Shown: positions 35,043-57,907 of the stretch, one piece after another
Numbering within the stretch: the first letter of the stretch is position 1
Layout: every line of letters begins with the position of its first letter
NCBI GenBank assembly: GCA_016932415.1
Contig: JAFGCX010000034.1
Span: 9,002 to 73,001, forward strand
From: Candidatus Krumholzibacteriota bacterium
GTDB lineage: Bacteria > Krumholzibacteriota > Krumholzibacteriia > Krumholzibacteriales > Krumholzibacteriaceae
Length of the DNA: 64,000 bases
Reading direction: 5' to 3'
Program-made: the position numbers and the translations under genes
The notes under the pieces: model-generated
Seen by the model: only the letters and a program-made list of their open reading frames with translations
What the model was told of the DNA's origin: nothing
Databases searched by the model: none

Positions 35043-35086
35043 CTTTTCGATCAAGGGAAAGACGGCAGAGCAAGGGGTGAGAGACA

Positions 35087-36304: not shown

Positions 36305-36341
36305 CTGACTTTTGTACGGGAAAGCATCGAAAGGAGAGGAT

Positions 36342-40832: not shown

Positions 40833-40906
40833 TGTGGAAAGGGTCCAGGATCAGTTTGCCTGCCGATCTGCCGGACCCCGGCGAGGATATCAAGAAAGGG
40901 TTTTAC

Positions 40907-43474
40907 ATGTCGGAAAAAACGATAAACAGATCGATAGCCACTTTGATCTTCATTATAAGCCTCGCAGTCTACGTGATGACGATGGCTGCCACTACATCAT
41001 TCTGGGATTCAGGCGAATTTATAGCGACTTCCTATACTCTGGGGATTCCCCATTCACCAGGGACTCCGTTATATGTCCTTGTCGGCCGCGTGTTCTGTCT
41101 TCTTCCTCTAGCCCTCTCCGCCGCGCAGAAAGTCAATCTGCTTTCAGCCGTGTCAGCCGCTCTCGGAGTGCTCATGGCTTACCTCGTCATGGTCGAGGTA
41201 GTGAGGTTCATGTACGGAAAGGGAGAGAGCGTTCTTGGAAAGTTCATCAGATTCTCGGGTCCGGTGGCTGGTTCCTTTTTTCTGACTTTTTCCGATACGT
41301 ACTGGACCAACGCTTCCGAATCGGAAGTCTATGCCCTGAGCACTTTTGTCATGGGTCTCTGCACCGTCCTCGCGCTCAGATGGCTGAGAGATCCTTCATG
41401 CGAGATGACTGCCGCTGAAAAAGATGAGATAGTCCGGTCGGCCGAAAAGGCGCAAGGAAAGAAACTTATTGATGAACTCGAAGAAAAGAAGAAAGGGCGG
41501 TCGAGGAATATAATCCTTCTCATAGTTTATCTTCTCTCTCTCGGGATAGGATTTCATCTCGGGACAGTCATGGTCTATGGCGGGATATTCCTCATGCTCG
41601 TGCTGATCAGGGAAAAAGCGTTCAGTAACTACGAACTTATTGTGTTTACATTCGGATTCGGAATCCTGATAGCCGACATGACGCTGCATAAATATTCCGG
41701 CCTGACGGCAGTCCTTCTCGTGATTTTCGCGATCATGGTGATCTGGACAACGATGTCGAAGGGCAGGTTCGCGCTCCACGCGACCATCCTTCTCATCCTC
41801 GGATTATCGGCGCATCTTTTTTTGCTGATCAGGTCTCACATGGATCCGGAACTCGACATGGTCGATCCCGAGAACTGGAGGGCTCTGTACGCGCATCTTC
41901 GAAGGGAACAGTATCCTCCCATAAACGTCATGGTTCGAAAATCTTCGATGCTGTTCCAGTTCGGACAGTTCGGCAGGTATTTCAGGGAACAGTTCCGTCT
42001 CGCGGGAGACCTGTTGCTGGGACCTTTCCACATAGGGAAAGCTTCGATCGTCGTTCCCGTGGCGCTTGGCATATACGGGATCGTCTCCAATTTCGTAAAG
42101 GAACGCAAGACCTGGATCTTGAACTTTACCAATCTTGCCATCAATACCCTCGGACTGATCATTCTGCTTAATTTCAGCGATTCAGAGCCTCGCGAGAGGG
42201 ATTATTTCTACGGTCCAGGATTTTATTTTTTCGCCATATTCATCGGTATCGGAGCATCGGCATTTTTGATGATGCTGCTAGAGCAGGTCAAGGAGACCGG
42301 CCGCGACCTCAGAAAACTGATCGTCCCGGCGGGAGTCCTGATAATACTTCTATCCCTTCTTCCAGCGGCTCACCAGTGGCACAGGCACGACCGGTCAAAT
42401 AATTATCTCGCGCGCGACTATGCCTATAACATGCTGGCAAGCCTCGAACCGGACGCGATCCTGGTCACTAACGGAGATAACGACACTTACCCTCTCTGGT
42501 ATATACAGAACGTCGAACATTTCAGGACCGACGTAAGGATTGTCAACCGGATGCTGCTTAATACCTCGTGGTACGTGAAGCAGGTCAGAGATCATATTCC
42601 CGGGGCGCCGATCACCTGGACTGACGACCAGATAGACAGCCTTCGGCCGGTACGCAGCGAACGCGACGGGGGTATAATATGGGTCTATAACAGGGTGCTC
42701 GACCACATAATAAAGACAGCAGGCTGGAAGAGGCCGATATATTTCGGTGTCACCGTTCCCCGCGAAGTCTGGGAAAGATACTCTGATTACCTCGAGATGC
42801 AGGGGATGGTAAGGAGACTCGTGCCGGTCAAGGGAAGGTATATGGTCAACGATTTAATGATGGCGCGGAATCTTGCCGATATCTACAGGTGGAAAGGTGT
42901 ACTTACCGCGGACGGGAAACATGATTATTCGATCTATAAATCGGAAGATGTCCTGACTATGTACCAGAACTATTCGGTGGCCACGATGCAGCTGGCGATG
43001 AATTGCGCCATCGCCGATGATTATCCAGGAGCTGTCAGATGGGGCGAGATGACGTTCAATATCAGTCCTTTCTTCGAATGGGGACGTAAGGAACTGGGCG
43101 TATATTATATCAGGAACGGCCAGGCTGAGAAAGCCGTTGATTATTACAAGGACAGGCTGAAGACAGATCCGGGCAATGGAGAATTCTGGGTAGGTATCGC
43201 CGCCGCCTATGAAAGCATGGGACAGATAGAGAATTCGCTGAGCATACTTCGCAGGGGTTCGGCGATGTCTCCAGATCACAAGGATATCTTCAAGCACGGT
43301 TTCCAGATGGCAGCTCTGCTTGGAAAAAGGGATGAAGCCGTTTTTTTCGTCAGTGACTGGATCGAGAGGCATCCCGACGACAGGGAGTTCAAGGCTCTTT
43401 TCGATGATATCGACCGCGTACTGATCGAAGAATTCGGATTCGGAGATGATACCGATTCAACAGGAACGCGATAG
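40907..43474 (+). CDS. DUF2723/TMEM260-like GT-C-fold membrane glycosyltransferase with C-terminal TPR repeats (paralog A)
   Basis: N-terminal FWDSGEFIATSYTLGIPHSPGTPLYVLVGRVF motif matching the GDSGE...HPPGYPL signature I recall for TMEM260/DUF2723; more than 10 TM helices; large extracytoplasmic domain; C-terminal TPR-like helical repeats. ATG 40907 after an AAGAAAGGG RBS. Confidence 0.7.
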   Translation: MSEKTINRSIATLIFIISLAVYVMTMAATTSFWDSGEFIATSYTLGIPHSPGTPLYVLVGRVFCLLPLALSAAQKVNLLSAVSAALGVLMAYLVMVEVVRFMYGKGESVLGKFIRFSGPVAGSFFLTFSDTYWTNASESEVYALSTFVMGLCTVLALRWLRDPSCEMTAAEKDEIVRSAEKAQGKKLIDELEEKKKGRSRNIILLIVYLLSLGIGFHLGTVMVYGGIFLMLVLIREKAFSNYELIVFTFGFGILIADMTLHKYSGLTAVLLVIFAIMVIWTTMSKGRFALHATILLILGLSAHLFLLIRSHMDPELDMVDPENWRALYAHLRREQYPPINVMVRKSSMLFQFGQFGRYFREQFRLAGDLLLGPFHIGKASIVVPVALGIYGIVSNFVKERKTWILNFTNLAINTLGLIILLNFSDSEPRERDYFYGPGFYFFAIFIGIGASAFLMMLLEQVKETGRDLRKLIVPAGVLIILLSLLPAAHQWHRHDRSNNYLARDYAYNMLASLEPDAILVTNGDNDTYPLWYIQNVEHFRTDVRIVNRMLLNTSWYVKQVRDHIPGAPITWTDDQIDSLRPVRSERDGGIIWVYNRVLDHIIKTAGWKRPIYFGVTVPREVWERYSDYLEMQGMVRRLVPVKGRYMVNDLMMARNLADIYRWKGVLTADGKHDYSIYKSEDVLTMYQNYSVATMQLAMNCAIADDYPGAVRWGEMTFNISPFFEWGRKELGVYYIRNGQAEKAVDYYKDRLKTDPGNGEFWVGIAAAYESMGQIENSLSILRRGSAMSPDHKDIFKHGFQMAALLGKRDEAVFFVSDWIERHPDDREFKALFDDIDRVLIEEFGFGDDTDSTGTR

Positions 43475-43580: not shown

Positions 43581-46142
43581 ATGTCGGAGAAACTGATCCA
43601 CCGGTCGCTTGCCGTCCTGATATTCCTGATCAGCCTGACCGTTTATGTGAGGACGATGGCTGTGAGCGTATCATTCTGGGACGCTGGTGAATTTATCGCG
43701 ACCTCCTATATTCTCGGCATCCCCCACTCACCGGGGACACCTCTATACGTACTTGTCGGAAGAGTCTTCTGCCTTCTTCCCCTGGCTCTTTCCACCGCGC
43801 AGAAGGTTAATTTTCTGTCAGCACTTTCAGCGTCGCTCGGTATCCTGATGATATACCTGTCGAGCCTCTATGCGATCAGATTCATATTCGGCAAGGCGAA
43901 GACCACCGCGGGGAGGATAGCGAGATACGCTGGACCTGTGACAGGCTCGTTCTTTCTTGCTTTCAGCGATACGTACTGGACGAACGCTTCAGAAGCAGAG
44001 GTATACGCGCTGAGCGCTTTCGTCATGGGTTTTTGCACCATGCTGGCGCTTAAGTGGCTCGGATCCGCTTATGGACAGTTTGGTCCGGGAGACGGGGACG
44101 GAAGAATCGACGATGCCGCCGCAGGAAGCCTACCTCCTGGACCGGCGGAAAAAAGAAAAAACAATTCAAGGAACACGATCCTGCTGATCATCTATCTTCT
44201 TTCGCTGGGGATTGGATTTCATCTCGGCACTATCCTCGTATACGCCGGTATTTTAATAATGCTCATGATGGTGAAGGAAAAAGCGATAAGCAACGTTGAA
44301 CTCCTCATCTTCACGTTCGGGTTCGGAGTGATGGTCGCTGATATGACTGTGCACAGAAACACGACCATTACGCTGGTACTTCTGGCGATCTTCGCCGTCC
44401 TGGTCGTATGGTCGACCTTGTCAAAGGGAAGATTCGTGCTTTTCGCGACTGGTCTTTTTATCCTTGGTATTTCTGTACATCTTTTTCTGATGATCCGGTC
44501 GGGACTGAATCCTGCAATAGATGAGGTCGATCCGGAGAGCTGGAAATCGCTTTACGCCGTCCTGCGCCGGGAGCAGTATCCTCCGATGAATATTTTCGCG
44601 AGGAAGGCGCCGCTACTCTTTCAGATCGAACATTTTACATCCTATTTCGCGAAACAGTTCAAAGTCACTGGTGATTTTTTCGCCGGTCCGTTCAATCTCG
44701 GTATCCTGTCCGCGTTGATCCCCGTCGGATTAGGCATATTCGGTATCGTCGCCAACTATATCAGAGAGAAAAAAAGCTGGGCGCTGAATTTTACGAACCT
44801 GGTGATAAATTCGGCAGGCCTGATAATCTTCCTGAACTTTACAAATCATGAAGTGAGGGAGCGGGATTATTTTTACGGTGCCGCCTTCTATTTCTTCGCC
44901 ATTTTTATTGCTATCGGCGCGACAGCCGTGTTGATGCTGATGTTGGATCAGGCAAAGAAGACCCGGCAGAATCAAGCGCGGTTTGTGGTTCCCGTGGCGG
45001 CATTCCTGATCATCTGTTCGTTGCTTCCTTCTACGCACCAGTGGTACACGCACGACAGGTCGGACGATTTCATAGCGCGCGACTACGCTTATAATATTCT
45101 TTCAGGGCTCGAACCGGACGCCATCATTTTTACCAACGGGGATAACGATACATTTCCTCTATGGTATCTGCAGACGGTCGAGAATGTCAGACCTGACGTC
45201 AGGGTGGCGAACCTGAGCCTCCTGAACACGTCGTGGTACACGAAGCAGATAAGGGACCAGTACCCCACCGTGCCTCTCGATCTGTCAGACGAAGAAATAG
45301 ACAGGCTTAAGCCGATCCGCGTCCAGGACGGGATACTATGGAAGAAGGATCTGCTGGTCAATCAGATAATCAGGAATACGAACTGGGCGAGACCGATATA
45401 TTTCGCCGTCACGGTCCCTGCTGACGTCTGGGACAGGTATTCAGATAATCTTGAGATGCAGGGGATGGTAAGGAGGCTCGTGCCGACGAAAGGCAAGTAT
45501 CTGGTTAACAATATCCAGATGGCCAGGAACCTCGGCGAGATCTTCATGTTCAGAGGGATCTTTACTGAAGACGGGGAGAGGGACGATTCAGTATATAAAC
45601 CGCGTGATGTCGAAAATATGTTCATAAACTTCTCGATCGCGGCGTTCCAGCTGGCTCAGTCGAGTTCGAGAAGCGGGGATGATGAAGAGGCAGTACAGTG
45701 GGCCGAGATGTCGTACAGGTTTTCGCCTGATTTCGAATGGCCCAGGAAATATCTCGGCGTTTATTATATGAAAAACAACCAGTACGAAAAGGCGATAGAC
45801 CATTACAGGAAAGAAATAGAAAGGGATCCTCAAGGCGGAGAGTTCTGGATAAATCTCGCCGCTGTCGAGGAAGAGAGAAACCAGCCAGAAAAAGCGCTGG
45901 AAATCCTCAGGGAAGGTATGGAGAGTGCCGGTTCTTTCAGGGATATTTACGGCCAGGCGTTCAGGATTGCCGCGACTCTCGGCCGGGTCGATGAGGCAAA
46001 AGGATATATAAGGAAATGGATCGATAAATATCCTGACGACGAAGAATTCAAAGCTCTTTACGATGATATAGATATAGTCCTCTTCAACGAATTCGGTATC
46101 GGTCAAGCGCAAAGCGGCGATTCCGTGGAAGGAGAAGATTGA
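43581..46142 (+). CDS. DUF2723/TMEM260-like GT-C-fold membrane glycosyltransferase with C-terminal TPR repeats (paralog B)
   Basis: Collinear paralog of the previous gene (FWDAGEFIATSYILGIPHSPGTPLYVLVGRVFCLLPLALSTAQKVN; shared FSDTYWTNASE, NGDNDT(Y/F)PLWY, NLEMQGMVRRLVP blocks). Confidence 0.7.
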   Translation: MSEKLIHRSLAVLIFLISLTVYVRTMAVSVSFWDAGEFIATSYILGIPHSPGTPLYVLVGRVFCLLPLALSTAQKVNFLSALSASLGILMIYLSSLYAIRFIFGKAKTTAGRIARYAGPVTGSFFLAFSDTYWTNASEAEVYALSAFVMGFCTMLALKWLGSAYGQFGPGDGDGRIDDAAAGSLPPGPAEKRKNNSRNTILLIIYLLSLGIGFHLGTILVYAGILIMLMMVKEKAISNVELLIFTFGFGVMVADMTVHRNTTITLVLLAIFAVLVVWSTLSKGRFVLFATGLFILGISVHLFLMIRSGLNPAIDEVDPESWKSLYAVLRREQYPPMNIFARKAPLLFQIEHFTSYFAKQFKVTGDFFAGPFNLGILSALIPVGLGIFGIVANYIREKKSWALNFTNLVINSAGLIIFLNFTNHEVRERDYFYGAAFYFFAIFIAIGATAVLMLMLDQAKKTRQNQARFVVPVAAFLIICSLLPSTHQWYTHDRSDDFIARDYAYNILSGLEPDAIIFTNGDNDTFPLWYLQTVENVRPDVRVANLSLLNTSWYTKQIRDQYPTVPLDLSDEEIDRLKPIRVQDGILWKKDLLVNQIIRNTNWARPIYFAVTVPADVWDRYSDNLEMQGMVRRLVPTKGKYLVNNIQMARNLGEIFMFRGIFTEDGERDDSVYKPRDVENMFINFSIAAFQLAQSSSRSGDDEEAVQWAEMSYRFSPDFEWPRKYLGVYYMKNNQYEKAIDHYRKEIERDPQGGEFWINLAAVEEERNQPEKALEILREGMESAGSFRDIYGQAFRIAATLGRVDEAKGYIRKWIDKYPDDEEFKALYDDIDIVLFNEFGIGQAQSGDSVEGED

Positions 46143-47101
46143 AAGGGAAAGTGGTAGTTACCGGAGCGGCGGGATTCATAGGATCCCACCTCTGTGAAAG
46201 ACTTCTCGGCGAAGGATATGAAGTGACCGGTATAGATTCGTTCACTGATTATTACGATCCGGCGAGAAAAAGGGAGAATATCAGCCATTCCCTTTCCAGA
46301 GACGGTTTTGATCTTGTCGAGGATGATTTAAACAGGTGTGACCTGCCGGCACTCTTCGATGGGGCGGCGGCTGTATTCCACCTTGCCGCCCAGGCGGGAG
46401 TCCGGAGAAGCTGGGGGAGCGAATTTTCCTTTTATATTGATTCAAATATCCTCGCTACCCAGAAGGTGCTCGAGGCTATTCGTGAGACCGGAGGCACCAG
46501 GCTCGTCTATTCCAGTTCAAGTTCAGTATACGGAGAGACGGAAGATCTCCCGATGAGCGAACAGCACCGTCTGAGACCGGTCTCTCCCTATGGAGCGACA
46601 AAGCTCTCCGGAGAAGACCTCTGCGAGCTTTACTCTTTCAATTTCGGGATCTCATTCGTCGCTCTAAGATACTTTACCGTATATGGTCCCAGGCAGAGGC
46701 CCGATATGGCTTTCAGCCGTTTTATCACGGCATCGCTCCAGGGTGGCGAGATCGAGATCTACGGTGACGGCAGGCAGACCAGGGACTTCACTTTCGTCTC
46801 AGACGCGGTCGAGGCGAATATTCTCGCTTCCAGATACGATGGAAAGGAGAAGATATTCAATATCGGGGGAGGGAGCCGAGTCTCCGTCCTCGAAGTACTT
46901 GATATTATCCGCAGGGAGACGGGAAAAGAGGTCAGTACGTTCTTCAAGGACAGAGCGAAGGGTGATGTCCTCGATACATGGGCAGATACTTCAAGAGCTC
47001 TGAATGAACTCGGATTCAAGCCTGAAGTAAAGCTTGAAGAGGGTCTGGCAAGAGAAGTCGAGTGGTACAAGGATCATATCAAAGCCCGGTCGGGGAGGTA
47101 G
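46139..47101 (+). CDS. NAD-dependent nucleotide-sugar epimerase/dehydratase (extended SDR)
   Basis: Rossmann GAAGFIGSHL, catalytic YxxxK (SPYGATK), about 320 aa. Confidence 0.85.
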   Translation: MKGKVVVTGAAGFIGSHLCERLLGEGYEVTGIDSFTDYYDPARKRENISHSLSRDGFDLVEDDLNRCDLPALFDGAAAVFHLAAQAGVRRSWGSEFSFYIDSNILATQKVLEAIRETGGTRLVYSSSSSVYGETEDLPMSEQHRLRPVSPYGATKLSGEDLCELYSFNFGISFVALRYFTVYGPRQRPDMAFSRFITASLQGGEIEIYGDGRQTRDFTFVSDAVEANILASRYDGKEKIFNIGGGSRVSVLEVLDIIRRETGKEVSTFFKDRAKGDVLDTWADTSRALNELGFKPEVKLEEGLAREVEWYKDHIKARSGR

Positions 47102-47105
47102 GGAT

Positions 47106-48047
47106 TTGGATACTGGCAAAAAACACAATATTTCGGTCGTCATTCCTCTCTATAACGAAGAAGAAAGCATAGAAGAACTTTATTCCCGGCTTGTTTCAGT
47201 ACTCGGAAAAGTGTCGGGGGATCTCGAATTGATATTCATTGACGACGGTTCCAACGATGGCTCGTTGAATATCATCCGAAAGCTCCGTGACGGCGATACG
47301 AGGGTCAAGATAATCAGTTTCAACAGGAATTACGGGAAATCTCCCGCTCTTTCGGAAGGTTTCGAAGCGGCAAAAGGAGATATCGTCGTCACGATCGATG
47401 CTGATCTGCAGGACAATCCCGACGAGATCCCGGGAATGATCGAAAAACTCGAACTGGGGTACGACCTCATCTCGGGTTGGAAGAAAAACAGGAAAGATCC
47501 GATCACCAAGACCCTTCCTTCAAAAGTCTTCAATTTTTTCGCGGCGATGATAACCGGTATCAAGCTTCACGACATCAATTGCGGGTTGAAGGTCTACAGG
47601 CGTGAAGTGGTAAAGCGGATCGATGTATATGGAGAGTTGCACAGGGTCATCCCGGTCCTGGCCGGCTGGGAAGGCTTCCGGATCGGTGAACACCGCGTCA
47701 GCCATTTCGAAAGAAAGTATGGACGCAGCAAATACGGAATGAAAAGATTTCTAAACGGGATATTCGATCTCACGACAGTGATGTTCATAACCCGCCGGTC
47801 GACTACCCCTCTTCATTTTTTCGGAAGAATAGCGGTTTTTTTCTTCACCGTCGGCGGCCTGATAAATCTATACTTTTTCTTTCAGTGGATCTTTGGAAAA
47901 GGGCTTCACGTGCGTCCGCTTATGGTCGGTGGCCTGATCATGCTTATAATCGCGGTACAGATAGGTTCGATCGGCCTGCTTGCCGAACTCTACTCATCGA
48001 ATCTCAAACGCACCTATTCCTATCGCGAGTACCTGATAGATGATTGA
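47106..48047 (+). CDS. GT2 polyprenol-phosphate glycosyltransferase (GtrB/ArnC/DPM1-like) with two C-terminal TM helices
   Basis: ISVVIPLYNEEESI, DDGSNDGS, TIDADLQD (DXD) motifs; two C-terminal TM helices typical of GtrB/ArnC/CsbB; TTG 47106 after a GGGGAGG RBS. Confidence 0.8.
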   Translation: MDTGKKHNISVVIPLYNEEESIEELYSRLVSVLGKVSGDLELIFIDDGSNDGSLNIIRKLRDGDTRVKIISFNRNYGKSPALSEGFEAAKGDIVVTIDADLQDNPDEIPGMIEKLELGYDLISGWKKNRKDPITKTLPSKVFNFFAAMITGIKLHDINCGLKVYRREVVKRIDVYGELHRVIPVLAGWEGFRIGEHRVSHFERKYGRSKYGMKRFLNGIFDLTTVMFITRRSTTPLHFFGRIAVFFFTVGGLINLYFFFQWIFGKGLHVRPLMVGGLIMLIIAVQIGSIGLLAELYSSNLKRTYSYREYLIDD

Positions 48048-49197
48048 CGAACCGGGAAATAAAAGATCGAGAATATGCCTGATCGGACCAGCCCCGCCTT
48101 TCAGGGGCGGAATATCACACTATAACACATGCCTGGCAAGGGAACTTTCAAAAGATCACGATGTACGGATGATCAATTACGCAAGGCTGTATCCGGAATT
48201 CCTTTTTCCCGGAAAGACACAGTATGATGAGGGATCCGGAGCGCTCGCGGCCGAGTCAGAGCGGATGATAGATTCGATCAATCCACTGACCTGGGTGAGG
48301 ACCGGCTTTCATATTGCAGGACTGAGACCAGACGTGACGGTAGTTCAGTGGTGGCACCCTTACTTCGCGCCCGCCCTTGCCAAGATATGCGCGATAATCA
48401 GGATGATGCGCAGGGGGAAGATCGTCTTTGTCTGTCATAATGTACTTCCTCATGAGAGTTCTCCATTCGACCGGATCCTGTCGAGGCTTGCGTTTATCAG
48501 CGCAGATGGTTTCCTGGTCCAGTCCCGCGAGGATCTAGCCAACCTGTCCCTGGTGAAAAAAAATCCGAAAGCGGCATACAATCCGCATCCGATCTACGAT
48601 TTTTTCAGGACAGAAACAATCGATAAATCGGCAGCGAGGGAGCTGGCGGGGCAGGGCGCGGGACCGCTTATTCTTTTTTTCGGTTATATCCGCTCATACA
48701 AGGGGCTTGAGCATCTGCTCCGGGCGATGCCTGATATACACCGCGCGACGGGAGCGAGATTGCTTGTCGTCGGGGAATTCTATGAGGACAGTGCTCCCTA
48801 TTTTGATCTTGTTTCGAGACTGGGAGTCGCCGATCAGGTGGAATTTGTCGATCGTTATGTCGGAAACGACGAAGTGGGCAGATATTTTATCGCTTCCGAC
48901 CTTGTCGTGTTGCCGTATAATACGGCGACGCAGAGCGGCATAGCCCAGATATCAATCGCGTTCGACCGGCCGATGGTCGTCACATCTGTCGGAGGTCTTC
49001 CCGAGGTTGTTTCCGAAGGAAAGACCGGATTTATCGTTCCTCCGGGAGATCCCGGAGCGATATCAAGGGCTGTGATCCGGTTTTTCAAGGAAGGGTGGGG
49101 AGAGAGGATGGCTCCGAATTTTGAGAAGGAGAAAGAACGGTTTTCGTGGAAAAAGATGGTATCTGTGCTGGAAGGGCTGATCGATGATCTTCGATAG
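48040..49197 (+). CDS. Glycosyltransferase family 4
   Basis: GT-B fold; C-terminal domain motif VVTSVGGLPEVVSEGKTGFIVPPGD. Confidence 0.8.
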   Translation: MIDEPGNKRSRICLIGPAPPFRGGISHYNTCLARELSKDHDVRMINYARLYPEFLFPGKTQYDEGSGALAAESERMIDSINPLTWVRTGFHIAGLRPDVTVVQWWHPYFAPALAKICAIIRMMRRGKIVFVCHNVLPHESSPFDRILSRLAFISADGFLVQSREDLANLSLVKKNPKAAYNPHPIYDFFRTETIDKSAARELAGQGAGPLILFFGYIRSYKGLEHLLRAMPDIHRATGARLLVVGEFYEDSAPYFDLVSRLGVADQVEFVDRYVGNDEVGRYFIASDLVVLPYNTATQSGIAQISIAFDRPMVVTSVGGLPEVVSEGKTGFIVPPGDPGAISRAVIRFFKEGWGERMAPNFEKEKERFSWKKMVSVLEGLIDDLR

Positions 49198-49212: not shown

Positions 49213-50097
49213 TTGAAAGATCAGATTCTTGACGTGATCATACTTAACTGGAACGGCGAGGACGTGATCGGCCAGTGTCTCGAATCGCTTGAAAAGGTGA
49301 AATCTCCACCTCTGAGGATAACTGTCGTCGATAACGCCTCGACTGACTCCTCGGTCGAAATGATCAGGGAGAGGTTTCCCGAAATCGAACTTCTGATCAA
49401 CGACAGCAACCTTCTTTTCGCCGAGGGGAACAATGTAGGGATCAGAAAGGCGATGGAGAGGGGTGGACAGTACATTCTCCTGCTGAACAACGATACGGAA
49501 GTCGATCCCGATTTCGCGCGGAGGATGATGGAAGCTGCCACCGTTCCCGGCATAGGGATCGTGGGACCGAAGATATATTTTTTTGATGACAGCGATCGGA
49601 TCTGGTATGGAGGCGGTGAATTCTTTCCCGGAATCTGGATACCAAAGCACAAGGACCTGAGGAAAAGGGACAGTGATTCAGATGGCAGGAGCGTTGAGAC
49701 CGGGTGGGTGACAGGGTGCGCGATGCTTGTCAGGAGAGAAGTGTTCGAGGATATAGGGCTTCTGGACAGGTCGTACAGGATCTATTGCGAGGATATTGAT
49801 TTTTGCCTGAGAGCAAAAAAGGCCGGATGGAAGTGTTATTATGAAGAGTCAGCCAGAGTATGGCATAAGGTCAGTTCAAGCAGCGGAGGAGGAATGACTC
49901 CCTTCAAGCTGGAAAACCGTATTGCCAGTACTAACAGGCTTTTTATCAGGTTCAGGTCGCTCTGCTGGCGCCTTTTCTTTTTTCCGGCGCATCTGCTTAT
50001 ATTCCTGTCGGTTCTGGGAGTACTGCTTGTCACTGGCAGATGGGCGCTTCTCAGGGGGGCCCTCAGGGGCGCGATGAGAGTGGTATCTTTCGATTGA
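49213..50097 (+). CDS. Glycosyltransferase family 2 (WbbL/rhamnosyltransferase-like)
   Basis: DVIILNWNG, VVDNASTD, LLLNNDTEV motifs. Confidence 0.8.
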   Translation: MKDQILDVIILNWNGEDVIGQCLESLEKVKSPPLRITVVDNASTDSSVEMIRERFPEIELLINDSNLLFAEGNNVGIRKAMERGGQYILLLNNDTEVDPDFARRMMEAATVPGIGIVGPKIYFFDDSDRIWYGGGEFFPGIWIPKHKDLRKRDSDSDGRSVETGWVTGCAMLVRREVFEDIGLLDRSYRIYCEDIDFCLRAKKAGWKCYYEESARVWHKVSSSSGGGMTPFKLENRIASTNRLFIRFRSLCWRLFFFPAHLLIFLSVLGVLLVTGRWALLRGALRGAMRVVSFD

Positions 50098-50317
50098 TTC
50101 CGTTGCTTCGGGGACGCGGCCCGCCATGCGTATCTCTTCCTGAATCCGCAAATCATCCGTTCTCCGTGACCGGTTCCGGAACGATCGGTGTCCCGATCCC
50201 GCCACGCCACGCGGGAGAACCGGCAGGTAAAGATGATAGATTTTGAAGGTTTACTAGGATAGTGGAAAATGTTATTATTATTGAAATTGTAAAATATAAC
50301 CTTTGAGGAGGCTGTAT

Positions 50318-52789
50318 TTGTCAAAAAATATCAGATCTGGCGATCAGAAGCGGCGCGAGTTTGATCCGGATCAGTTTCTCGATAATGCTGCCGGTTGGCG
50401 AAGGGGTATTCTGGTCGCGCTATTTCTTGTCGTTGTGCTGGCGATCGTCATGCCGGAATTGATCTTTCATGGGGATATTTTTCTTGTTCCCGACACAAAG
50501 GCTCCGATCAGTTTCAGCGAAGTCGGCAGGGAATATCTTGAATCGGGAAAATATCCTTTGTGGAACCCGTATATATTCTGCGGAATGCCGAGTTATCCCA
50601 GCCTGTCGTATACTCCGTATGTCTATCCGATCGCCTATGTGACTTATATTCTTCAAAGATATCTCGGATTCCCCGAGATGACATGGCTGCTGGTCCATTA
50701 CATCCTGGCAGGAATGGGAATATATCTTCTTCTCCGTTCCTTTGGGGTGAGGAGTTCGATCTCGATGCTGGCAGGTGGCCTTTTCATGATCATGCCTAAT
50801 CTTGTCGCGAACGGAGCTAACGGGCATGGTTCCCAGGCGTGCGCGGTCGCATATATGCCCTACGTATTTCTGTTCTGCAGGAATATATTGACCGGCAGAG
50901 GAAGGGTCGTAAACACTGCCTTTCTCGCCATTGCCCTTGGTTTTCAGATGCTGAGGGGGCATGTTCAGATATCGTATTATACATATCTCATCACAGGCCT
51001 TCTTTTTATTATGGAGACGATCCGCCTTGCCCGGACGGGAAAGGGGAAAGAGATCGCGGTGAACTCTGGATTCATTTTCGCGGCGGTCATTCTTTCGGCA
51101 GGTATAGCGGCAGTGCTGATCTTTCCGGTGAGGGAATATGCCGATTATTCGATACGAGGCGGAACAGGCGGGGGGCTGGACTATGATTACGCCACCGGGT
51201 GGAGCCTTCCTCCGAAGGAATTGCTTACCCTAATCTTTCCGTGGGCGTCAGGTTTCGGAAAAATGACATACTGGGGCGGGATGCCTTTTACCGATTATCC
51301 GAATTATCTCGGGATTGTCACTGCGGTCTTTTCGGTTATCGGTTTTTTTATCGTACGCAGCAGATGGAAGTGGTATCTGGCCGTGATCATCATAGTGGCG
51401 ACTTTTGTCAGTTTTGGCAGGTTTATGCCGGTCCTGTACGACCCGCTCTTCAGGCTTCTGCCCTTTTTCAATAAATTCCGTGTCCCGGTGATGATCCTGA
51501 TTGTACAGCAACTGGCCGTTACAGTCCTTATGGGACTGGCTATAGAGGAATATCTTCAGCTGGTTGCCAGGGACGAGCTGCCAGCGATCCTTAAAAAAGA
51601 AAGTTTAAAATGGGGCCTTCTCGCGGCGGTCGCCCTCTTTCTCCTCGTCATCGCCGCTTCAGGCAGCATAAAACAGGATCTCGCGGCAAGCGAGGCGATA
51701 AGAAGCAGGGTCCGTCCAGAGTGGATAATGATGGCAGTCTCAGCCTATTCGTCTGATCTGGTGAGAACTTTATTTTTTCTCGTCGCGACCATAGCCACTC
51801 TCTTTTTCGTATCCTGGAAGAGGCCGAAGGGCTCTCTTGCCATCATCATCCTTTCAGTCCTGTTGCTTTTTGATATTATTTCCGTGGACCGATCGATCGT
51901 GCATCCGGAAAGTACGTGGAACAACAGCGGGTACAGGATCGTCAGACCGGTAACGGCGAGGGAAAGGTACAAGGAACCCGGTGTCATGGCGAAATATCTA
52001 GCCGCGGACACCACTTTTTTCAGGGTCTTTCCCGTTCCCGCTTCAAGGCCTGGAAGCTGGAACCACAGCACTTTCCCTTTCAGCGACAATAGCTATATGA
52101 TGTCGGGGATATTCTCCATGGGGGGATATCACGCAGCCAAGCTCAAAAACTACCAGGATGTGATGGATCTTCTTTTCGCTACATTCAACAGGGGCGTCGT
52201 TCCGAAACAGATATTGAATATGCTCGGAGCGAAGTATTTTCTGTCGATGCATCCGGTCTTCCCGGAAGGATCGGAATATCCTCTGATCTATCAGAAAGAT
52301 AAAAACTACATCTACAGAAATCCAGAGGCTCTTCCCAGGGTCTATTTCGTCGACAGGATCAAGTTGATGACAAAAGAAGACGCGCTCCTTTCGCTGACGT
52401 CGAATGCATTTGATCCCTCACGCGAAGTGATCCTGCAGGCGATGCCCGATGGAGAGATAGATTCAGCCGGAGGAAGCAGAGCCGAGATCACGGCGTATGA
52501 TCTTAACACGATCAATATAGAGGCTCATGTCGAAAAGTCATGTATAATGGTCGTCAGCGAGGTAGACTATCCCGACTGGAAAGTCACCATTGACGGCAGA
52601 GAAGGCGATATCCTGACGGCGAATTACTGTTTAAGAGCGATAGAGCTTCAGCCGGGAGAACATCGGATCGAATTCACATTTGAATCCCCGGTCCTGAACA
52701 GATCACTGATGCTTTCGATAATCTCCATCGCGATAGCTCTGTCAACCGTTATCATCTCATTTCTCGTCACTGGCAGAAAGGGGGATTGA
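50318..52789 (+). CDS. YfhO-family GT-C membrane glycosyltransferase
   Basis: About 825 aa polytopic membrane protein with YfhO-like N-terminal motif GKYPLWNPYIFCGMPS and large C-terminal extracytoplasmic domain; TTG 50318 six nt after GAGGAGG is preferred over the track start 50303, which overlaps that RBS. Confidence 0.7.
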   Translation: MSKNIRSGDQKRREFDPDQFLDNAAGWRRGILVALFLVVVLAIVMPELIFHGDIFLVPDTKAPISFSEVGREYLESGKYPLWNPYIFCGMPSYPSLSYTPYVYPIAYVTYILQRYLGFPEMTWLLVHYILAGMGIYLLLRSFGVRSSISMLAGGLFMIMPNLVANGANGHGSQACAVAYMPYVFLFCRNILTGRGRVVNTAFLAIALGFQMLRGHVQISYYTYLITGLLFIMETIRLARTGKGKEIAVNSGFIFAAVILSAGIAAVLIFPVREYADYSIRGGTGGGLDYDYATGWSLPPKELLTLIFPWASGFGKMTYWGGMPFTDYPNYLGIVTAVFSVIGFFIVRSRWKWYLAVIIIVATFVSFGRFMPVLYDPLFRLLPFFNKFRVPVMILIVQQLAVTVLMGLAIEEYLQLVARDELPAILKKESLKWGLLAAVALFLLVIAASGSIKQDLAASEAIRSRVRPEWIMMAVSAYSSDLVRTLFFLVATIATLFFVSWKRPKGSLAIIILSVLLLFDIISVDRSIVHPESTWNNSGYRIVRPVTARERYKEPGVMAKYLAADTTFFRVFPVPASRPGSWNHSTFPFSDNSYMMSGIFSMGGYHAAKLKNYQDVMDLLFATFNRGVVPKQILNMLGAKYFLSMHPVFPEGSEYPLIYQKDKNYIYRNPEALPRVYFVDRIKLMTKEDALLSLTSNAFDPSREVILQAMPDGEIDSAGGSRAEITAYDLNTINIEAHVEKSCIMVVSEVDYPDWKVTIDGREGDILTANYCLRAIELQPGEHRIEFTFESPVLNRSLMLSIISIAIALSTVIISFLVTGRKGD

Positions 52790-52790
52790 G

Positions 52791-53507
52791 TTGAAGGCTC
52801 TGGTCGTGATTCCAACATATAACGAGAACGAGAATATCAGAAATATAATCAAAGCCGTTCTGAGTCAGGATGAGGGGGTGGATATTCTCGTCATAGACGA
52901 TAATTCTCCGGATGGTACCGGAGCTATCGTTGATGAACTAATCGTATCGGAACCGAGGATCCATGTCATCCACCGGAAGGGGAAGCTTGGGCTGGGGTCT
53001 GCGTATATAGCCGGATTCAAATGGGCGCTGGCCAATACTGACGCGAAATATATTTTCGAGATGGACGCGGATTTTTCCCATGATCCTGGCGACATAAAAT
53101 TTTTTCTCGAGGCGATCAAGGATAACGATCTCGTCATTGGATCGAGATATCTCAATGGGATCCGGGTCGTAAACTGGCCGCTCAGCAGATTGATCCTCAG
53201 CACCGGAGCGAATATATATACCGGAATCGTTACCGGGCTTCCCCTGAAAGATTCAACCGGCGGGTTCAAATGTTTCCGTCGCGAGACACTGGCCGGCCTT
53301 CCTCTTGATACGATCAGGAGTGACGGCTACTCTTTTCAGATAGAGATGAATTTCTTCTGCTGGAAAAAAGGTTTCAGGATAAGGGAAATACCAATAATAT
53401 TTTCCGACAGGAGAGTCGGCGTTTCGAAGATGTCAAAAAAGATAATATGGGAAGCGGCGTTCATGGTCTGGCGCCTGAGGTTCATGTCCCCGCGGCGATG
53501 GAAGTAA
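52791..53507 (+). CDS. Polyprenol-phosphate mannose synthase-like GT2 (Ppm1/DPM1-like, soluble catalytic domain)
   Basis: VVIPTYNENENI, IDDNSPDGT, EMDADFSHDP (DAD) motifs; 238 aa with no C-terminal TM; TTG start. Confidence 0.8.
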   Translation: MKALVVIPTYNENENIRNIIKAVLSQDEGVDILVIDDNSPDGTGAIVDELIVSEPRIHVIHRKGKLGLGSAYIAGFKWALANTDAKYIFEMDADFSHDPGDIKFFLEAIKDNDLVIGSRYLNGIRVVNWPLSRLILSTGANIYTGIVTGLPLKDSTGGFKCFRRETLAGLPLDTIRSDGYSFQIEMNFFCWKKGFRIREIPIIFSDRRVGVSKMSKKIIWEAAFMVWRLRFMSPRRWK

Positions 53508-55583
53508 ATGGATCTTTCAATAATAATCATTACGCACAACAGCCTTGTCCCGGTCGAAAAGTGTCTGGAATCCCTCGAGGCCTGCCCTCCCTCGGGCAGC
53601 TACGAGACGATCGTCATCGATAACGCCAGCAGTGACGGTTGCGCCGACATGATAGAGGAGTCGTTTCCCAGATGCATGGTGATCAGAAACGAGGAGAACA
53701 GGGGATACTCCCGCGGGGTCAATCAGGGGATCGATCTTTCGATTTCGGAATTGATACTCATACTCAATCCCGATATCGAGGTGAGAGACGGTTCCATCGA
53801 CAGGCTCGCCCGGTTCATGAACGATAATCGATCGGCAGGTATGGCTGGATCGAAGCTCCTCTATCCCGATGGACGGCTACAATATTCCTGCCGGGCTTTT
53901 TACACAATAAAGGCGCTTTTTTTAAGGCGGACGTTCCTTGGAAGGATCTTTCCGAAGGCGCGCGCTTTGAGAGAACATCTGATGATCGACTATGATCATG
54001 AGCAGGCGCGCAAAGTCGACTGGCTCATAGGCGCCTGTCTGATGGTCAGGCGGGAAGCGATAGAAAAGGTCGGCAAGATGGATGAAAGGTTTTTTCTCTA
54101 TTTTGAAGATACCGACTGGTGCTACCGGATGAATCAGCACGGATGGGATGTCTATTACATTCCCGATTCGGTGATGACGCACCGGTACGAAAGATCAAGC
54201 GCGAGGTCGGTATTTAAAAAGCCTTTTCTCATGCATCTTCTCAGTCTTCTGCGATATTACGAGAAATGGAATAAAATATTCTACTTTTTCAGGCGGCACC
54301 GGGGCGCCCTGAAATCAATCATATTCGCCGCGTCCGACCTTGTCGCGGCGAACGCGGGATTCTTCATAGCGTATTATCTGCGTGGTCTGTTCCAGTCCCT
54401 GTTTACAAACAGCCTGTATCCTCTCGACTGGTACGCTTTCTTTATCTACTTCTATAATTTTATCTTCTTTTTCACATTCCTCTTCGGCGGTCTCTACCAG
54501 ATCAGGAGGGAGACCGGGGCGGCCCTGGAGTTCTCGAGAGTCGCCAGGTCGGTCTTCGCCTCTTTCGCGATCCTGCTGGGAGCGACATATCTTACCCGGA
54601 TAAGGATATATTCCCGGGCTGTCCTTGGAGGACAGGCGCTGTTGAGCCTTATTCTCGTCTTTGGTTTCAGGAGGATCATCCGGCTTGTTCACAACCAGCT
54701 TGTCAGAGCCTCTTTTGACCTTAAAAGGGTCATCCTGGCAGGTGACGAGGATGAGGTAGAACGGTTCAGGGGACTTGTGCAGGCTGATCCGCATCTGGGA
54801 ATCGATGTCGTCGGAGATATTTCCGGTGGACCGGGATCTATCGGAAAGATGGAAGATCTCGAGAGTATAATCGACAGGTTCAAGATACAGGAGGTGCTGA
54901 TACTTCCATCGTATGTCGAGAGGGGCCTGATCTTTCCGTTCCTTTGCATTCATGGTACGCGGATGCTTGAGATAAGAATAGTGTCACCGGTCGCCAGATT
55001 CATGGGCAGGGAGGTCAGGGTCCAGAAGATCGGTGATAGTTATATGTTTTCCATCGAAAGAGGGACCCAGTTTCTACTTCTGAGATTATTGCAGCGTTTG
55101 TCCGATATCGTCACTGGCGCTGTTTTTCTCCCCCTGTCGGCAGTCTGTCTCTTTTTTTTCAGGATATCCGGAACGGCAGGTCGAAAAGCGTCGGTCTTTT
55201 CGGAAAAAAGGACAGGGTACAGGGAAAAGACAATAGACTGGCCGAGAATCATGACTCGATCAGGCAGGGAGGGATCGGACATGATCAAACCGGCACTCTG
55301 GGCCGATCTGCTGTTCGGGAGACTGGCTCTCGTGGGACCGCCACCTTCACCGGTATCTGATGACGGTGGTCACGCCGGCCCTGACGGAGGAATGAGGCCG
55401 GGGATAAGCGGAAGATGGAGGATCTCTCCCGAAGCTGACTGGAAAAAATCTTTCGAAAACGAGGTAATCGAAACTAGGACACGTTCAATCACTGATTATC
55501 TGGAGATACTTTTCAGGTCTGTCGGCATGTTTTTTTCAGGCAGATATCCGGAATGGTATTTTAACAAGGGGGATAACCCGTGA
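53508..55583 (+). CDS. Fusion protein: N-terminal GT2 glycosyltransferase + C-terminal membrane domain resembling polyprenyl-phosphate sugar phosphotransferase (WbaP/EpsB-like, divergent)
   Basis: N-terminal IIIITHNS, IDNASSDG, DxD-type GT2 about 260 aa; then 4-5 TM helices, a linker, and a Bac_transf-like C-terminus (PALWADLLFGRLALVGPPPSP, compare consensus LPQLxNVLKGDMSLVGPRP) in which the usual DE dyad and KFRTM motif are not recognisable. Confidence 0.6.
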   Translation: MDLSIIIITHNSLVPVEKCLESLEACPPSGSYETIVIDNASSDGCADMIEESFPRCMVIRNEENRGYSRGVNQGIDLSISELILILNPDIEVRDGSIDRLARFMNDNRSAGMAGSKLLYPDGRLQYSCRAFYTIKALFLRRTFLGRIFPKARALREHLMIDYDHEQARKVDWLIGACLMVRREAIEKVGKMDERFFLYFEDTDWCYRMNQHGWDVYYIPDSVMTHRYERSSARSVFKKPFLMHLLSLLRYYEKWNKIFYFFRRHRGALKSIIFAASDLVAANAGFFIAYYLRGLFQSLFTNSLYPLDWYAFFIYFYNFIFFFTFLFGGLYQIRRETGAALEFSRVARSVFASFAILLGATYLTRIRIYSRAVLGGQALLSLILVFGFRRIIRLVHNQLVRASFDLKRVILAGDEDEVERFRGLVQADPHLGIDVVGDISGGPGSIGKMEDLESIIDRFKIQEVLILPSYVERGLIFPFLCIHGTRMLEIRIVSPVARFMGREVRVQKIGDSYMFSIERGTQFLLLRLLQRLSDIVTGAVFLPLSAVCLFFFRISGTAGRKASVFSEKRTGYREKTIDWPRIMTRSGREGSDMIKPALWADLLFGRLALVGPPPSPVSDDGGHAGPDGGMRPGISGRWRISPEADWKKSFENEVIETRTRSITDYLEILFRSVGMFFSGRYPEWYFNKGDNP

Positions 55584-57907
55584 GACGGCTCTGTTCATTT
55601 TTCATCCTGATGTCGATACTGTCCACCGGCCAGGCAACGGCAGATCCAGGGGACTGGAATCTATTTCTCGATGCCAGCGCCGTAAACAGGATCACCTGTC
55701 TCGGCGACAGTCTCTGGTGCGGAACCAACGGAGGAATCCTGCTTTTCGACCTCACTGATTCGACTATGACACAGTTCTATTCCGGGCTGGGATTGAGATC
55801 GAATGAGGTGTCGGCTGTCGCGCTTGATCCAGAAGGCGTCCTCTGGGCGGCATTCAGGGGGGAGGGCCTGGTAAGGATCGAAAATATAGCGACAAACCCG
55901 GTAGTGAGCCATTACAACGAAAAATCGACACTCATCCTCAGCGACAGTATCAATTGCCTTCTCTCTGTCGATGAGGATGTATATTACGGCTCTGACAATG
56001 GAATAGCCAAATTTTTCGACAAGAGCCATTCCCTGGAACCGAATCTGTCCGATAACCTTGCTGGAAAAAGGATAAACGACCTGCTTCTTGACGATGAAAA
56101 CCGGTTGTGGGTCGCTCATGAAGATGGCGTGGCAAGCTTTGGCCGCGACACGTTCATTTTTACTGACTATCCCATAGGCACAGCGTTTTCGATCACTTTG
56201 CATGAAGGGATGATATATGCCGCAACCTCGACAGGGATAGCGAGATTGAACGGCGAGTCATGGGAGCAGTACGGGACGACTTTTCATAATGGTCTTCTCC
56301 CGGTAAGTATAGCTTCAGGTGGAGGCGAGATATACGCGGCGACCGAGGAGAGAGCGTACAGGCATAACGGGTCATACTGGGAGAGTATCGCCACCGCGCA
56401 GATGAAGGCTATGTTTCTCGACAATTACAGGATCGGTCAGTATCATCTCCGCTCTGTCGCGGTCGACGGGAGAGGTGACCCCTGGATCGGGGGAAGACTC
56501 CCGAGCGGTTCGTCGAGGGGAAGTTATATCTCCGGATTCAATGGCGAAGAATGGGTCAACAGAGCCCTGCCGACATTGAGTCAGAATGACGTCATTGCTA
56601 TCGGAATCGCCCCCGGAGGAGCGGTATGGTCGAGCACTCTCTACGGGATCAACTACAGATCCGGTACCGGTGACTGGATCAGGTATTCAAAGATAAGATC
56701 GGACACGGGAAATGATGACGCTCTTTCATATTTTGCCTACAACCTGGCGCTGCTTCATGATTCCGGTAATATCCTGTGGTGCAATTCTCTCAATTACGAC
56801 CTCGATATGATCGACCTGGGAAATATCTTCGATAAGGATGATGATATCTGGCGGCATTTCGCGATAGAGGATGGCAATACGATCACGACTGACAGGTTTG
56901 TAAAGGCAAAGGAAGACCCGGCCGGGAACAGGTGGTTTCTTTCCGATGACGATTATTACGAATCGAGCGGGATATGGGGAATAAATATCACCGACCAGTC
57001 AGCGGATCAGTGGTTCGCCGTAAATCCCCTTCTCAATCCTTCGATGAAAGGCGGCAATATCTTCGACTGCGTCTTCGATCAATTCGGAGTATATCTGGCC
57101 ATAAAGGGATTTGGAGTCCAGTACTGGAGAACGGGCGGGTTCAGCTGGAGTACACTTACTTCGGAGACCGGTGATATATGGCTCACGCTGATGGATGAAT
57201 CGAACCTTGTCAGTACGGAGATAGAAGCTATAGAGGTTGGAAGCGACGGAACGGTATGGGTCGGGACGGGAGGCGGCCTGGTCAGGTATCGCCAGGGTGA
57301 AATAGAGGTGTATACTGAAAAGGGAGAAGAGACCAATTACGGATTGATCGGACTTTCCGTGAGCGATCTCGAATTCGACAGTTTCGGAAATCTCTGGGTC
57401 GCGACAGACAAGGGACTGAACAGGATCGATGCCGACGGGATCATAGACGCGGCGTTTACTACCGCTACTTTCTGGGAGAACAATATACAGGCATTCTATT
57501 CAGAGTCGGTCATATCACCCCTTCCGAGTCATGTATGCCAGGTGCTGGCGTGTGATGCCGATGAGGATCTTCTCTGGATAGGGACCGACAGGGGCCTTGC
57601 ATCTTTCGACGTGAGGCCACTGGTACAGGTTTCGATCCCACTGTCTCGCGCTATACTCTACCCCAACCCGATACATATCGGCCGGGGTGATTCATCCCTT
57701 AAGATCTCACGCATCTCGGGAATCGTCGATATAAGCGTCTATAATCTGGAAGGAGAACTGGTGCATGAGATAGAGGGTGTCGCCGAGGGAGAGGATGCCT
57801 GGGATCTGCTTACGATAAACGGGTTCACTGCCCAATCCGGGATCTATATAGTAAGAATATCCGGAAGTTCCGGCATAGAGACAAGAAAGGTTGCGATTAT
57901 CAGGTGA
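55580..57907 (+). CDS. Secreted beta-propeller repeat protein with T9SS C-terminal sorting domain
   Basis: Signal peptide; many W/Y-rich sensor-propeller-like repeats (WVGT..GL..Y; LW.GTD.GL); C-terminus ILYPNPIHIG...ISVYNLEGELVHEIEG...AQSGIYIVRISGSSGIETRKVAIIR matches the T9SS type-A CTD pattern; GTG start overlapping the upstream stop. Confidence 0.7.
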   Translation: MRRLCSFFILMSILSTGQATADPGDWNLFLDASAVNRITCLGDSLWCGTNGGILLFDLTDSTMTQFYSGLGLRSNEVSAVALDPEGVLWAAFRGEGLVRIENIATNPVVSHYNEKSTLILSDSINCLLSVDEDVYYGSDNGIAKFFDKSHSLEPNLSDNLAGKRINDLLLDDENRLWVAHEDGVASFGRDTFIFTDYPIGTAFSITLHEGMIYAATSTGIARLNGESWEQYGTTFHNGLLPVSIASGGGEIYAATEERAYRHNGSYWESIATAQMKAMFLDNYRIGQYHLRSVAVDGRGDPWIGGRLPSGSSRGSYISGFNGEEWVNRALPTLSQNDVIAIGIAPGGAVWSSTLYGINYRSGTGDWIRYSKIRSDTGNDDALSYFAYNLALLHDSGNILWCNSLNYDLDMIDLGNIFDKDDDIWRHFAIEDGNTITTDRFVKAKEDPAGNRWFLSDDDYYESSGIWGINITDQSADQWFAVNPLLNPSMKGGNIFDCVFDQFGVYLAIKGFGVQYWRTGGFSWSTLTSETGDIWLTLMDESNLVSTEIEAIEVGSDGTVWVGTGGGLVRYRQGEIEVYTEKGEETNYGLIGLSVSDLEFDSFGNLWVATDKGLNRIDADGIIDAAFTTATFWENNIQAFYSESVISPLPSHVCQVLACDADEDLLWIGTDRGLASFDVRPLVQVSIPLSRAILYPNPIHIGRGDSSLKISRISGIVDISVYNLEGELVHEIEGVAEGEDAWDLLTINGFTAQSGIYIVRISGSSGIETRKVAIIR

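Follow-up and report, generated by a model that had tools for sequence, protein, structure and literature searches.

In the Firmicutes systems, a GT-A glycosyltransferase at the cytoplasmic face of the membrane makes a polyprenyl-phosphate-linked monosaccharide, which is flipped and then transferred on the outside by a YfhO-type GT-C glycosyltransferase, the acceptors being teichoic acid or Ser/Thr-rich protein regions (PMC8035078, PMC12041528). Modules composed of a GT-A and a GT-C enzyme have precedent (PMC8035078), and Ppm1, a synthase devoid of transmembrane (TM) helices, works with membrane partners (PMC3460810). Here we analyzed a window of 64,000 nucleotides (the whole stretch of DNA examined) from a metagenome-assembled genome of Candidatus Krumholzibacteriota (contig JAFGCX010000034.1, positions 9,002 to 73,001), in which the gene of an 823-residue YfhO-like GT-C enzyme is immediately followed by that of a 238-residue DPM1-type glycosyltransferase. 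The logic of the system is that of the known multi-component glycosylation systems. As the best explanation of the locus, it is reasonably probable that the DPM1-like synthase provides the donor and the YfhO-like GT-C enzyme acts as the transferase, with the donor probably shared by further enzymes of the same cluster.

The YfhO-like gene (50318-52789, forward strand, as are all cluster genes given below by start and end) starts at TTG 50318 and ends with a TGA codon at 52787-52789, encoding 823 residues. It is preceded by a Shine-Dalgarno sequence GAGGAGG at 50305-50311; the length of the identical GenBank protein (P0001), also 823 residues, makes an alternative start at TTG 50303 unlikely. 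The DPM1-type gene (52791-53507) starts at TTG 52791 and ends with TAA at 53505-53507, encoding 238 residues. At the junction between them (52777-52793), a Shine-Dalgarno-like AAAGGGGGA at 52777-52785 still belongs to the 3' end of the GT-C coding sequence; the TGA codon, a single base and the TTG start come next. The subsequent gene begins with ATG 53508, which directly abuts the stop codon of the DPM1-type gene. The open reading frames and their nearly contiguous stops and starts (52789/52791 and 53507/53508) were thus read from the sequence exactly as in a preliminary description of the window, which had regarded the two genes as a donor/transferase pair, and the two genes would be co-translated as a unit. 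For both proteins, GenBank contains an entry with 100% identity, under the names "YfhO family protein" and "polyprenol monophosphomannose synthase", respectively; the GenBank and JGI names of the latter are homology-based.

The 238-residue protein belongs to the Pfam family GT2 and, judged from its sequence, is a DPM1-type polyprenyl-phosphate glycosyltransferase. In the PDB, it strongly matches a single entry, the catalytic domain of the dolichyl-phosphate-mannose (Dol-P-Man) synthase from Pyrococcus furiosus (PfDPMS, PDB 5mlz), with an E-value of 1.2e-32. The alignment spans residues 1-229 against PfDPMS residues 23-246, including the interface helices and the A-loop. Structural similarity search using Foldseek with the AlphaFold2 model (pLDDT 71) also ranked PfDPMS first, with a TM-score of 0.70 and a sequence identity of 32%, followed by GtrB and ArnC, all three of which are polyisoprenyl-phosphate glycosyltransferases. 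In PfDPMS, Asp39 binds the guanine, Asp91 the metal and the diphosphate, and Asp89 and His94 the mannose, whereas Arg117, Arg131 and Ser135 are ligands of the dolichyl phosphate, and Glu12, Arg202 and Lys208 are associated with the A-loop (Gandini et al., PMC5526996). All of these ten residues have equivalents in the 238-residue protein, including Asp92 and Asp94 of the DXD motif, Arg119, Arg133 and Ser137 for the lipid phosphate, and Arg207 and Lys213 of the A-loop, with a DAD(F)SH motif at residues 92-97. Among 101 distinct homologues whose genes adjoin YfhO-like genes, none of the mapped residues varies, whether it serves the donor, the metal, the lipid phosphate or the A-loop. The protein departs from PfDPMS at two positions, with Ser in place of Gln93 and Gln in place of Lys178. 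The same Ser and Gln are present in what we take to be the sequence of human DPM1, presumably 41% identical to the 238-residue protein. By homology to these enzymes, the sugar moved by the enzyme is most likely mannose from GDP-mannose.

As described previously for this gene, the 238-residue protein has no TM helix: the maximal Kyte-Doolittle mean over 19 residues is 1.27, compared to 2.31 for a TM-anchored GT2 encoded at 47106. A soluble protein of the very broad GT2 family might also be an ordinary enzyme that transfers a sugar from a nucleotide diphosphate to an acceptor other than a lipid, its name being a mistake owed to similarity at the family level. Indeed, the protein reaches no NCBIfam equivalog cutoff, the best scores being those of AglJ (68 bits, 8.3e-19) and PpgS (62 bits), and both the interface-helix region (residues 121-156) and the A-loop (residues 205-215) are modelled with low confidence. 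However, the full-length match to PfDPMS covers precisely these segments, the lipid-phosphate ligands Arg119, Arg133 and Ser137 are invariant, and the three top fold families all act on polyisoprenyl phosphates, which makes such an enzyme very improbable. The best matches are therefore polyprenyl-phosphate glycosyltransferases rather than GT2 enzymes with non-lipid acceptors, and the DPM1-type identity proposed from the sequence is borne out by sequence, fold and invariant lipid-phosphate residues alike.

To compare gene order, 80 loci from GTDB species genomes and 80 loci from metagenomes around a more distant subgroup were collected; the cluster proteins were mapped onto them by tblastn, duplicates were removed, and at least 1 kb downstream of the GT-C gene was required. 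The DPM1-like gene directly follows the YfhO-like gene in 99 of the 125 deduplicated loci, indicating that the adjacency is not due to chance. The junction is tight, with a median distance of -1 nt over 111 pairs, 102 of which overlap or are at most 10 nt apart; the synteny of YfhO-like and DPM1-like pairs across genomes is thus strongly positive. Across the loci, the DPM1-like proteins share 57-89% identity with that of the window, compared to 31-72% for the GT-C proteins. The pair was found in Krumholzibacteriota, Latescibacterota, Eisenbacteria and unassigned metagenome lineages. In Krumholzibacteriota and Latescibacterota, the entire cluster of ~25 kb is conserved, in the order of methyltransferase, GT4, flippase-like protein, one or two TMEM260-like proteins, epimerase, TM-anchored GT2, GT4 and an optional GT2, then YfhO-like, DPM1-like, a fusion of GT2 and phosphoglycosyltransferase (GT2-PGT), β-propeller, PseB-like, FemAB-like, MOP flippase and GT4. 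In Eisenbacteria-type loci, the YfhO-like, DPM1-like and propeller genes are kept together, most other neighbours being different, and no TMEM260-like, epimerase or TM-anchored GT2 gene was found within 10 kb. The same 10-kb distance is free of TMEM260-like and TM-anchored GT2 genes in five further deduplicated loci with the pair.

One clade of eight loci, L078 (KSB1), L080 (Neomarinimicrobiota), L069, L072-L074, L081 and L082, is devoid of the DPM1-like gene. In six of them, a TM-anchored GT2 gene is located nearby, with or without GT4 and GT2 genes; it precedes the YfhO-like gene except in one locus, where it comes directly after. In the two loci of this clade that were checked, a MOP flippase gene lies directly upstream of the GT-C gene. 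The DPM1-like gene of the Eisenbacteria-type loci occupies the position of the TM-anchored GT2 gene in this sister clade. The two types of GT2 thus seem equivalent in sister clades, which supports the DPM1-like enzyme as a possible donor synthase for the GT-C enzyme. Only two alignment positions of the GT-C are fixed differently in the clade without the DPM1-like gene, namely Asn161 to Tyr and Leu212 to Gln, too few to argue for a switch of donor. An assignment of most distant representatives to this clade, made from best BLAST hits, proved to be wrong; relatives of the representative P0245 carry the DPM1-like gene downstream.

The 823-residue protein, according to its predicted structure, is a GT-C fold enzyme. 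Its AlphaFold2 model, built on 20 homologues, has a pLDDT of 85.6 and a pTM of 0.86, and consists of helices up to residue ~530, a β-sandwich at residues ~638-788 and a C-terminal TM helix at residues 791-821; the TM segments assigned by hydropathy include TM1 (residues 26-44) and residues 799-817. This layout, a multi-TM N-terminal module, an extracytoplasmic domain and a last TM helix, agrees with the architecture of YfhO. Foldseek matches in the PDB with a probability of 1.00 include AftD (6w98, 5.5e-7), ArnT (5f15, 1.4e-5), STT3 (6ezn), AftA (8if8) and PglB (6gxc); a PDB sequence search gave no match. The Pfam family YfhO (PF09586) scores 52.1 bits against a cutoff of 28.5, but the match is confined to profile positions 756-835 of 835, corresponding to residues 722-800. 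Residues 1-561 match no Pfam family at E-values up to 10 apart from noise, and ten distant relatives scanned as a bridge to a full-length match all hit the YfhO profile at their C-terminal end only. As the profile misses the catalytic TM module, the label "YfhO-like" relies on the C-terminal ~80 residues together with fold and architecture, and these features support the name given in the preliminary description. The protein is best described as a member of a divergent, uncharacterized YfhO-like branch of a GT-C family that counts 58,096 representative clusters at E-values of at most 1e-3.

A conserved, putatively catalytic loop, whose loss would have spoken against a YfhO-like transferase, is present. 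Asp59, within the sequence FLVPDTKAP (an xPD motif), is located in the first extracytoplasmic loop directly after TM1. It is invariant in the homologue alignment (A1) and near-invariant in 67 GT-C sequences from all clades, among which 73 other positions are near-invariant as well; the conserved loop motifs include YPLWNP, GMPS and MPFTDYPNY. From this conservation, Asp59 is the putative catalytic residue. In view of the fold and the adjacent lipid-sugar synthase genes, we infer that the GT-C enzyme uses a polyprenyl-phosphate-linked sugar donor.

The fold matches bear on a further interpretation, in which the DPM1-like enzyme would work as archaeal AglJ does and attach the first hexose to a monophosphate carrier, polyprenyl phosphate, GT4 and GT2 enzymes would extend the glycan to an oligosaccharide, a MOP protein would flip it, and the YfhO-like protein would be an oligosaccharyltransferase or ligase instead of a monosaccharide transferase. 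STT3 and PglB are indeed among the fold matches of the YfhO-like protein, AglJ is the best NCBIfam match of the 238-residue protein, and in each of the clades examined, irrespective of the type of synthase, the YfhO-like gene is accompanied by GT4, GT2 and MOP flippase genes. However, the fold is closer to AftD and ArnT, enzymes with monosaccharide donors, than to STT3, and the AglJ match, far below its cutoff, is weak compared to that of PfDPMS. Moreover, the GT2-PGT fusion and the PseB-like dehydratase point to a conventional diphosphate-linked glycan, and no bacterial precedent of such a route was found in the literature searched. Altogether, we regard this route as improbable.

The arrangement of the remaining glycosyltransferase genes leaves more room for another assignment of donors to transferases. 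A second candidate lipid-sugar synthase, a TM-anchored GtrB/ArnC/PgfS-like GT2, is encoded at 47106-48047, with two C-terminal TM helices (residues 266-284 and 298-316) and matches to ArnC (2.7e-53) and PgfS (1.5e-44) that are both below the NCBIfam cutoffs. Its mechanical open reading frame starts at 47034 and overlaps the preceding gene by 68 nt; the likely start is TTG 47106, with GGGGAGG at 47090-47096, yielding a protein of 313 residues, the same length as the homologue in a related locus (L001). The preceding gene (46139-47101) codes for an NAD-dependent sugar epimerase/dehydratase (Pfam Epimerase, 1e-58; GalE-like in NCBIfam). This order of epimerase and GT2 resembles that of PgfE and PgfS, which together with PgfM1 constitute the known pathway of the Pgf operon (PMC12041528). 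In addition, two TMEM260-like GT-C paralogues (1 and 2) are encoded at 40832-43474 and 43581-46142 (Pfam TMEM260-like, 1.4e-36 and 3.4e-37, respectively), both with C-terminal TPR and with the motifs FWDxGEF (FWDSGEF in paralogue 1), GIPHSPG and TNGDNDT; the copy number is one in many related loci and two in others, including the window. Paralogue 2 matches human TMEM260 (9rql_A) with an E-value of 3e-12, and Asp52, His67 and Asp441 of the human protein align to identical residues. In human TMEM260, Asp52 and His67 are essential, Asp441 is the catalytic base, and the donor is Dol-P-Man (bioRxiv 10.64898/2026.03.17.711096).

These neighbours suggest that the partners might be crossed, with the YfhO-like enzyme using the lipid-linked sugar that the epimerase and the TM-anchored GT2 (46139-48047) provide, as in the streptococcal Pgf system, the DPM1-like enzyme feeding polyprenyl-phosphate-mannose to the two TMEM260-like protein O-mannosyltransferase homologues, as DPM1 does for TMEM260 in eukaryotes, and the adjacency of the pair reflecting operon packing only. 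In favour of such an assignment, the synthase at 47106 with its epimerase resembles the known PgfS pathway, the KSB1, Neomarinimicrobiota and related loci have only the TM-anchored type of GT2 near the YfhO-like gene, and the TMEM260-like genes, with their conserved catalytic residues, were found in no locus without the DPM1-like gene. By contrast, the DPM1-like and YfhO-like genes overlap or nearly touch even in loci that have neither TMEM260-like nor TM-anchored GT2 genes within 10 kb, and the DPM1-like gene never adjoins the TMEM260-like genes, which are 7-12 kb away. We therefore take crossed partners to be possible but rather unlikely. The crossed and paired assignments are not mutually exclusive, since lipid-phosphate-mannose donors are normally common to several GT-C enzymes.

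Several observations nonetheless weigh against the DPM1-like enzyme as donor synthase of the YfhO-like transferase. The GtrB/PgfS-like GT2 and its epimerase lie 2.2 kb upstream of the GT-C gene, and this is the partner type found in CsbB/YfhO, PgfS/PgfM1 and GtrB/PgtC2. The clade with KSB1, Neomarinimicrobiota and others, which has no DPM1-like neighbour, is a single monophyletic GT-C clade. TMEM260-like genes occur in 33 of 39 loci with the DPM1-like gene, compared to none of 13 without it, and the DPM1-like donor may primarily serve these enzymes. Moreover, related lineages share their gene order in part by descent, and the locus counts are not phylogenetically independent evidence. With respect to the sugar, specificity is not readable from sequence, given the replacement of Lys178 and Gln93 of PfDPMS, and no gene for GDP-mannose synthesis was found in the cluster; a PGM/PMM-family gene is located at 14124, unlinked to it. 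Taken together, a donor/transferase pair is still the best reading, but an exclusive one is improbable: the preliminary description had overlooked the second synthase and the two TMEM260-like GT-Cs, and an exclusive one-to-one pairing is not established because these share the cluster. The TMEM260-like GT-Cs are likely other consumers of polyprenyl-phosphate-mannose, as plausible as the YfhO-like enzyme, and by analogy with the lipid-phosphate-mannose of actinobacteria and eukaryotes, the product of the DPM1-like enzyme is probably shared with both of them.

Based on the preferred assignment, we propose that the DPM1-like enzyme would act as a peripheral membrane protein at the cytoplasmic face, possibly docked on its membrane neighbour as in Ppm1/Ppm2 and DPM1/DPM3, and transfer a hexose, most likely mannose from GDP-mannose, to polyprenyl phosphate. 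The lipid-linked sugar would then be flipped, and the YfhO-like GT-C enzyme would pass it on to an acceptor outside the cytoplasm, which may be a protein or else an envelope glycan that the cluster itself produces. The cluster encodes two candidate flippases for the lipid-linked sugar. One is a flippase-like membrane protein of the LPG_synthase_TM/TIGR00374 family (MprF-type; 39870-40832; Pfam, 1.3e-40; TIGR00374, 74.5 bits against a cutoff of 43.2), the gene of which lies between the GT4 and TMEM260-like genes in all full clusters. The other is a MOP-family protein encoded at 60284, whose homologue in locus L001 carries Pfam Polysacc_synt. No gene for a GtrA/GtcA-type flippase was found in the tightly packed cluster.

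The genes of the cluster otherwise overlap or touch each other, except for an AT-rich intergenic gap of 220 nt (50098-50317), the largest in the cluster, immediately before the YfhO-like gene. Related loci likewise have 80-240 nt between genes at this position, which makes the gap a possible internal start of a unit composed of the YfhO-like, DPM1-like, GT2-PGT and propeller genes. A promoter-like site is present at 50250-50278; in the promoter and terminator scan such sites were no commoner than in shuffled sequences, and therefore the operon boundary in the gap is suggested by gap size only.

Upstream of the gap are a GT4 gene (48040-49197) and a GT2 gene (49213-50097), assigned by Pfam; the YfhO-like gene has this pair with it throughout the clades examined. 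Downstream of the DPM1-like gene, in most loci, follows the GT2-PGT gene (53508-55583), the product of which has a GT2 domain, a TM region, CoA_binding_3 and a weak Bac_transf-like C-terminus (Pfam and NCBIfam); no phosphoglycosyltransferase structure in the PDB was matched by it. The region of the Asp-Glu dyad reads MIKPALWADLLFGRLALVGPPP, as compared by eye with what we take to be the phosphoglycosyltransferase motif, and this C-terminal domain may be catalytically dead. The next gene (55580-57907) encodes a secreted Reg_prop β-propeller with a C-terminal sorting domain (Pfam Por_Secre_tail) of the type IX secretion system (T9SS), which scores 36.9 bits for TIGR04183 (cutoff 23) and 84 bits for PorZ, below the cutoff of 260. 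Of 54 loci with the DPM1-like gene, 42 also have the propeller gene, compared to none of 20 loci without it; the propeller gene follows the DPM1-like gene, with or without GT2-PGT in between, in Krumholzibacteriota, Latescibacterota, Eisenbacteria and metagenome loci. The propeller may be an acceptor of glycosylation or a link to the attachment of T9SS cargo. The glycosylation cluster begins with a methyltransferase gene at 37968, and the flank upstream of it (including 23878-25365 and 33201-36812) contains housekeeping genes for the selenocysteine synthase SelA, SMC, an FtsY-like SRP GTPase and a chemoreceptor, as well as a riboflavin operon of ribD, ribE, ribBA and ribH.

In the literature searched, no YfhO-type enzyme was paired with a DPM1-type synthase or with polyprenol-phosphate mannose, and nothing was found on glycosylation in Krumholzibacteriota or the other phyla of these loci. 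To our knowledge, the characterized YfhO-type systems are all from Firmicutes and all employ a TM-anchored GtrB/CsbB-type synthase. Both genes of the pair are already so named in GenBank; what is gained here is the evidence for functional coupling and a map of the alternative partners. In many diderm lineages that have not been cultured, a large, uncharacterized YfhO-like branch is coupled to a DPM1-type synthase without TM helices, which indicates that donors of the lipid-phosphate-mannose type are used well outside Actinobacteria, and the same probably holds for extracytoplasmic mannosylation. In addition, a DPM1 homologue encoded near bacterial homologues of TMEM260 that retain the catalytic residues of the human enzyme makes a family of O-mannosyltransferases linked to human disease tractable in a bacterial model. 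As a speculation that we consider doubtful, the YfhO-like, DPM1-like, (GT2-PGT), PorZ-like T9SS propeller and TMEM260-like proteins might constitute an undescribed surface glycosylation pathway of FCB-group candidate phyla that depends on polyprenyl-phosphate-mannose. If so, bacteria would possess an equivalent of the protein O-mannosylation by DPM1 and TMEM260 in eukaryotes, and the pathway might build or decorate the glycan that anchors the cargo of type IX secretion.

Compared to the Firmicutes systems CsbB/GtcA/YfhO, PgfS/PgfE/PgfM1 and GtrB/PgtC2, the locus has the same logic, the same GT-C architecture with a C-terminal match to Pfam YfhO, and the same adjacency of genes. However, the adjacent GT-A enzyme is of the TM-less DPM1 type, whereas theirs is of the GtrB/CsbB type with two TM helices; here the GtrB-type enzyme is encoded 2.2 kb upstream of the GT-C gene, and a GtrA/GtcA-type flippase is missing. 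Moreover, the N-terminal catalytic module is not recognized by the YfhO profile, and the host lineages, candidate phyla of the FCB group, are diderm and have no teichoic acids. Actinobacterial Ppm1, which works with Ppm2/Lnt and feeds Pmt and other GT-C mannosyltransferases, is likewise a TM-less DPM1-type enzyme; it makes polyprenyl-phosphate-mannose, is encoded beside or fused to a membrane protein on which it may dock, and supplies GT-C enzymes that act outside the cytoplasm (PMC3460810, PMC5882110). They differ in that the neighbour here is a GT-C transferase instead of the acyltransferase Lnt, and the consumer would be a YfhO-like or TMEM260-like enzyme rather than one of the PMT family.

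Both human DPM1 (type II) and PfDPMS (type III, PDB 5mlz) have motifs in common with the 238-residue protein, including DAD-x-S/Q-H, Arg117, Arg131, Ser135, Arg202 and Lys208. As to a type II form, the 238-residue protein is TM-less, as is human DPM1, and its gene is tightly coupled to that of a membrane protein, whereas PfDPMS possesses its own four-TM domain. In contrast to the eukaryotic and archaeal enzymes, it has no DPM2 or DPM3 homologues at its side, and the lipid is presumably an undecaprenyl-type polyprenol instead of dolichol. Human TMEM260 (9rql) compares with the neighbouring genes rather than with the pair, at a low similarity (two short stretches at the E-value given above). Nevertheless, the two upstream GT-Cs have the same architecture of GT-C, Rossmann-like and TPR domains, and the same Asp52, His67 and Asp441; the DPM1-type synthase is supplied by the endoplasmic reticulum in the human system, and by the cluster itself in the window.

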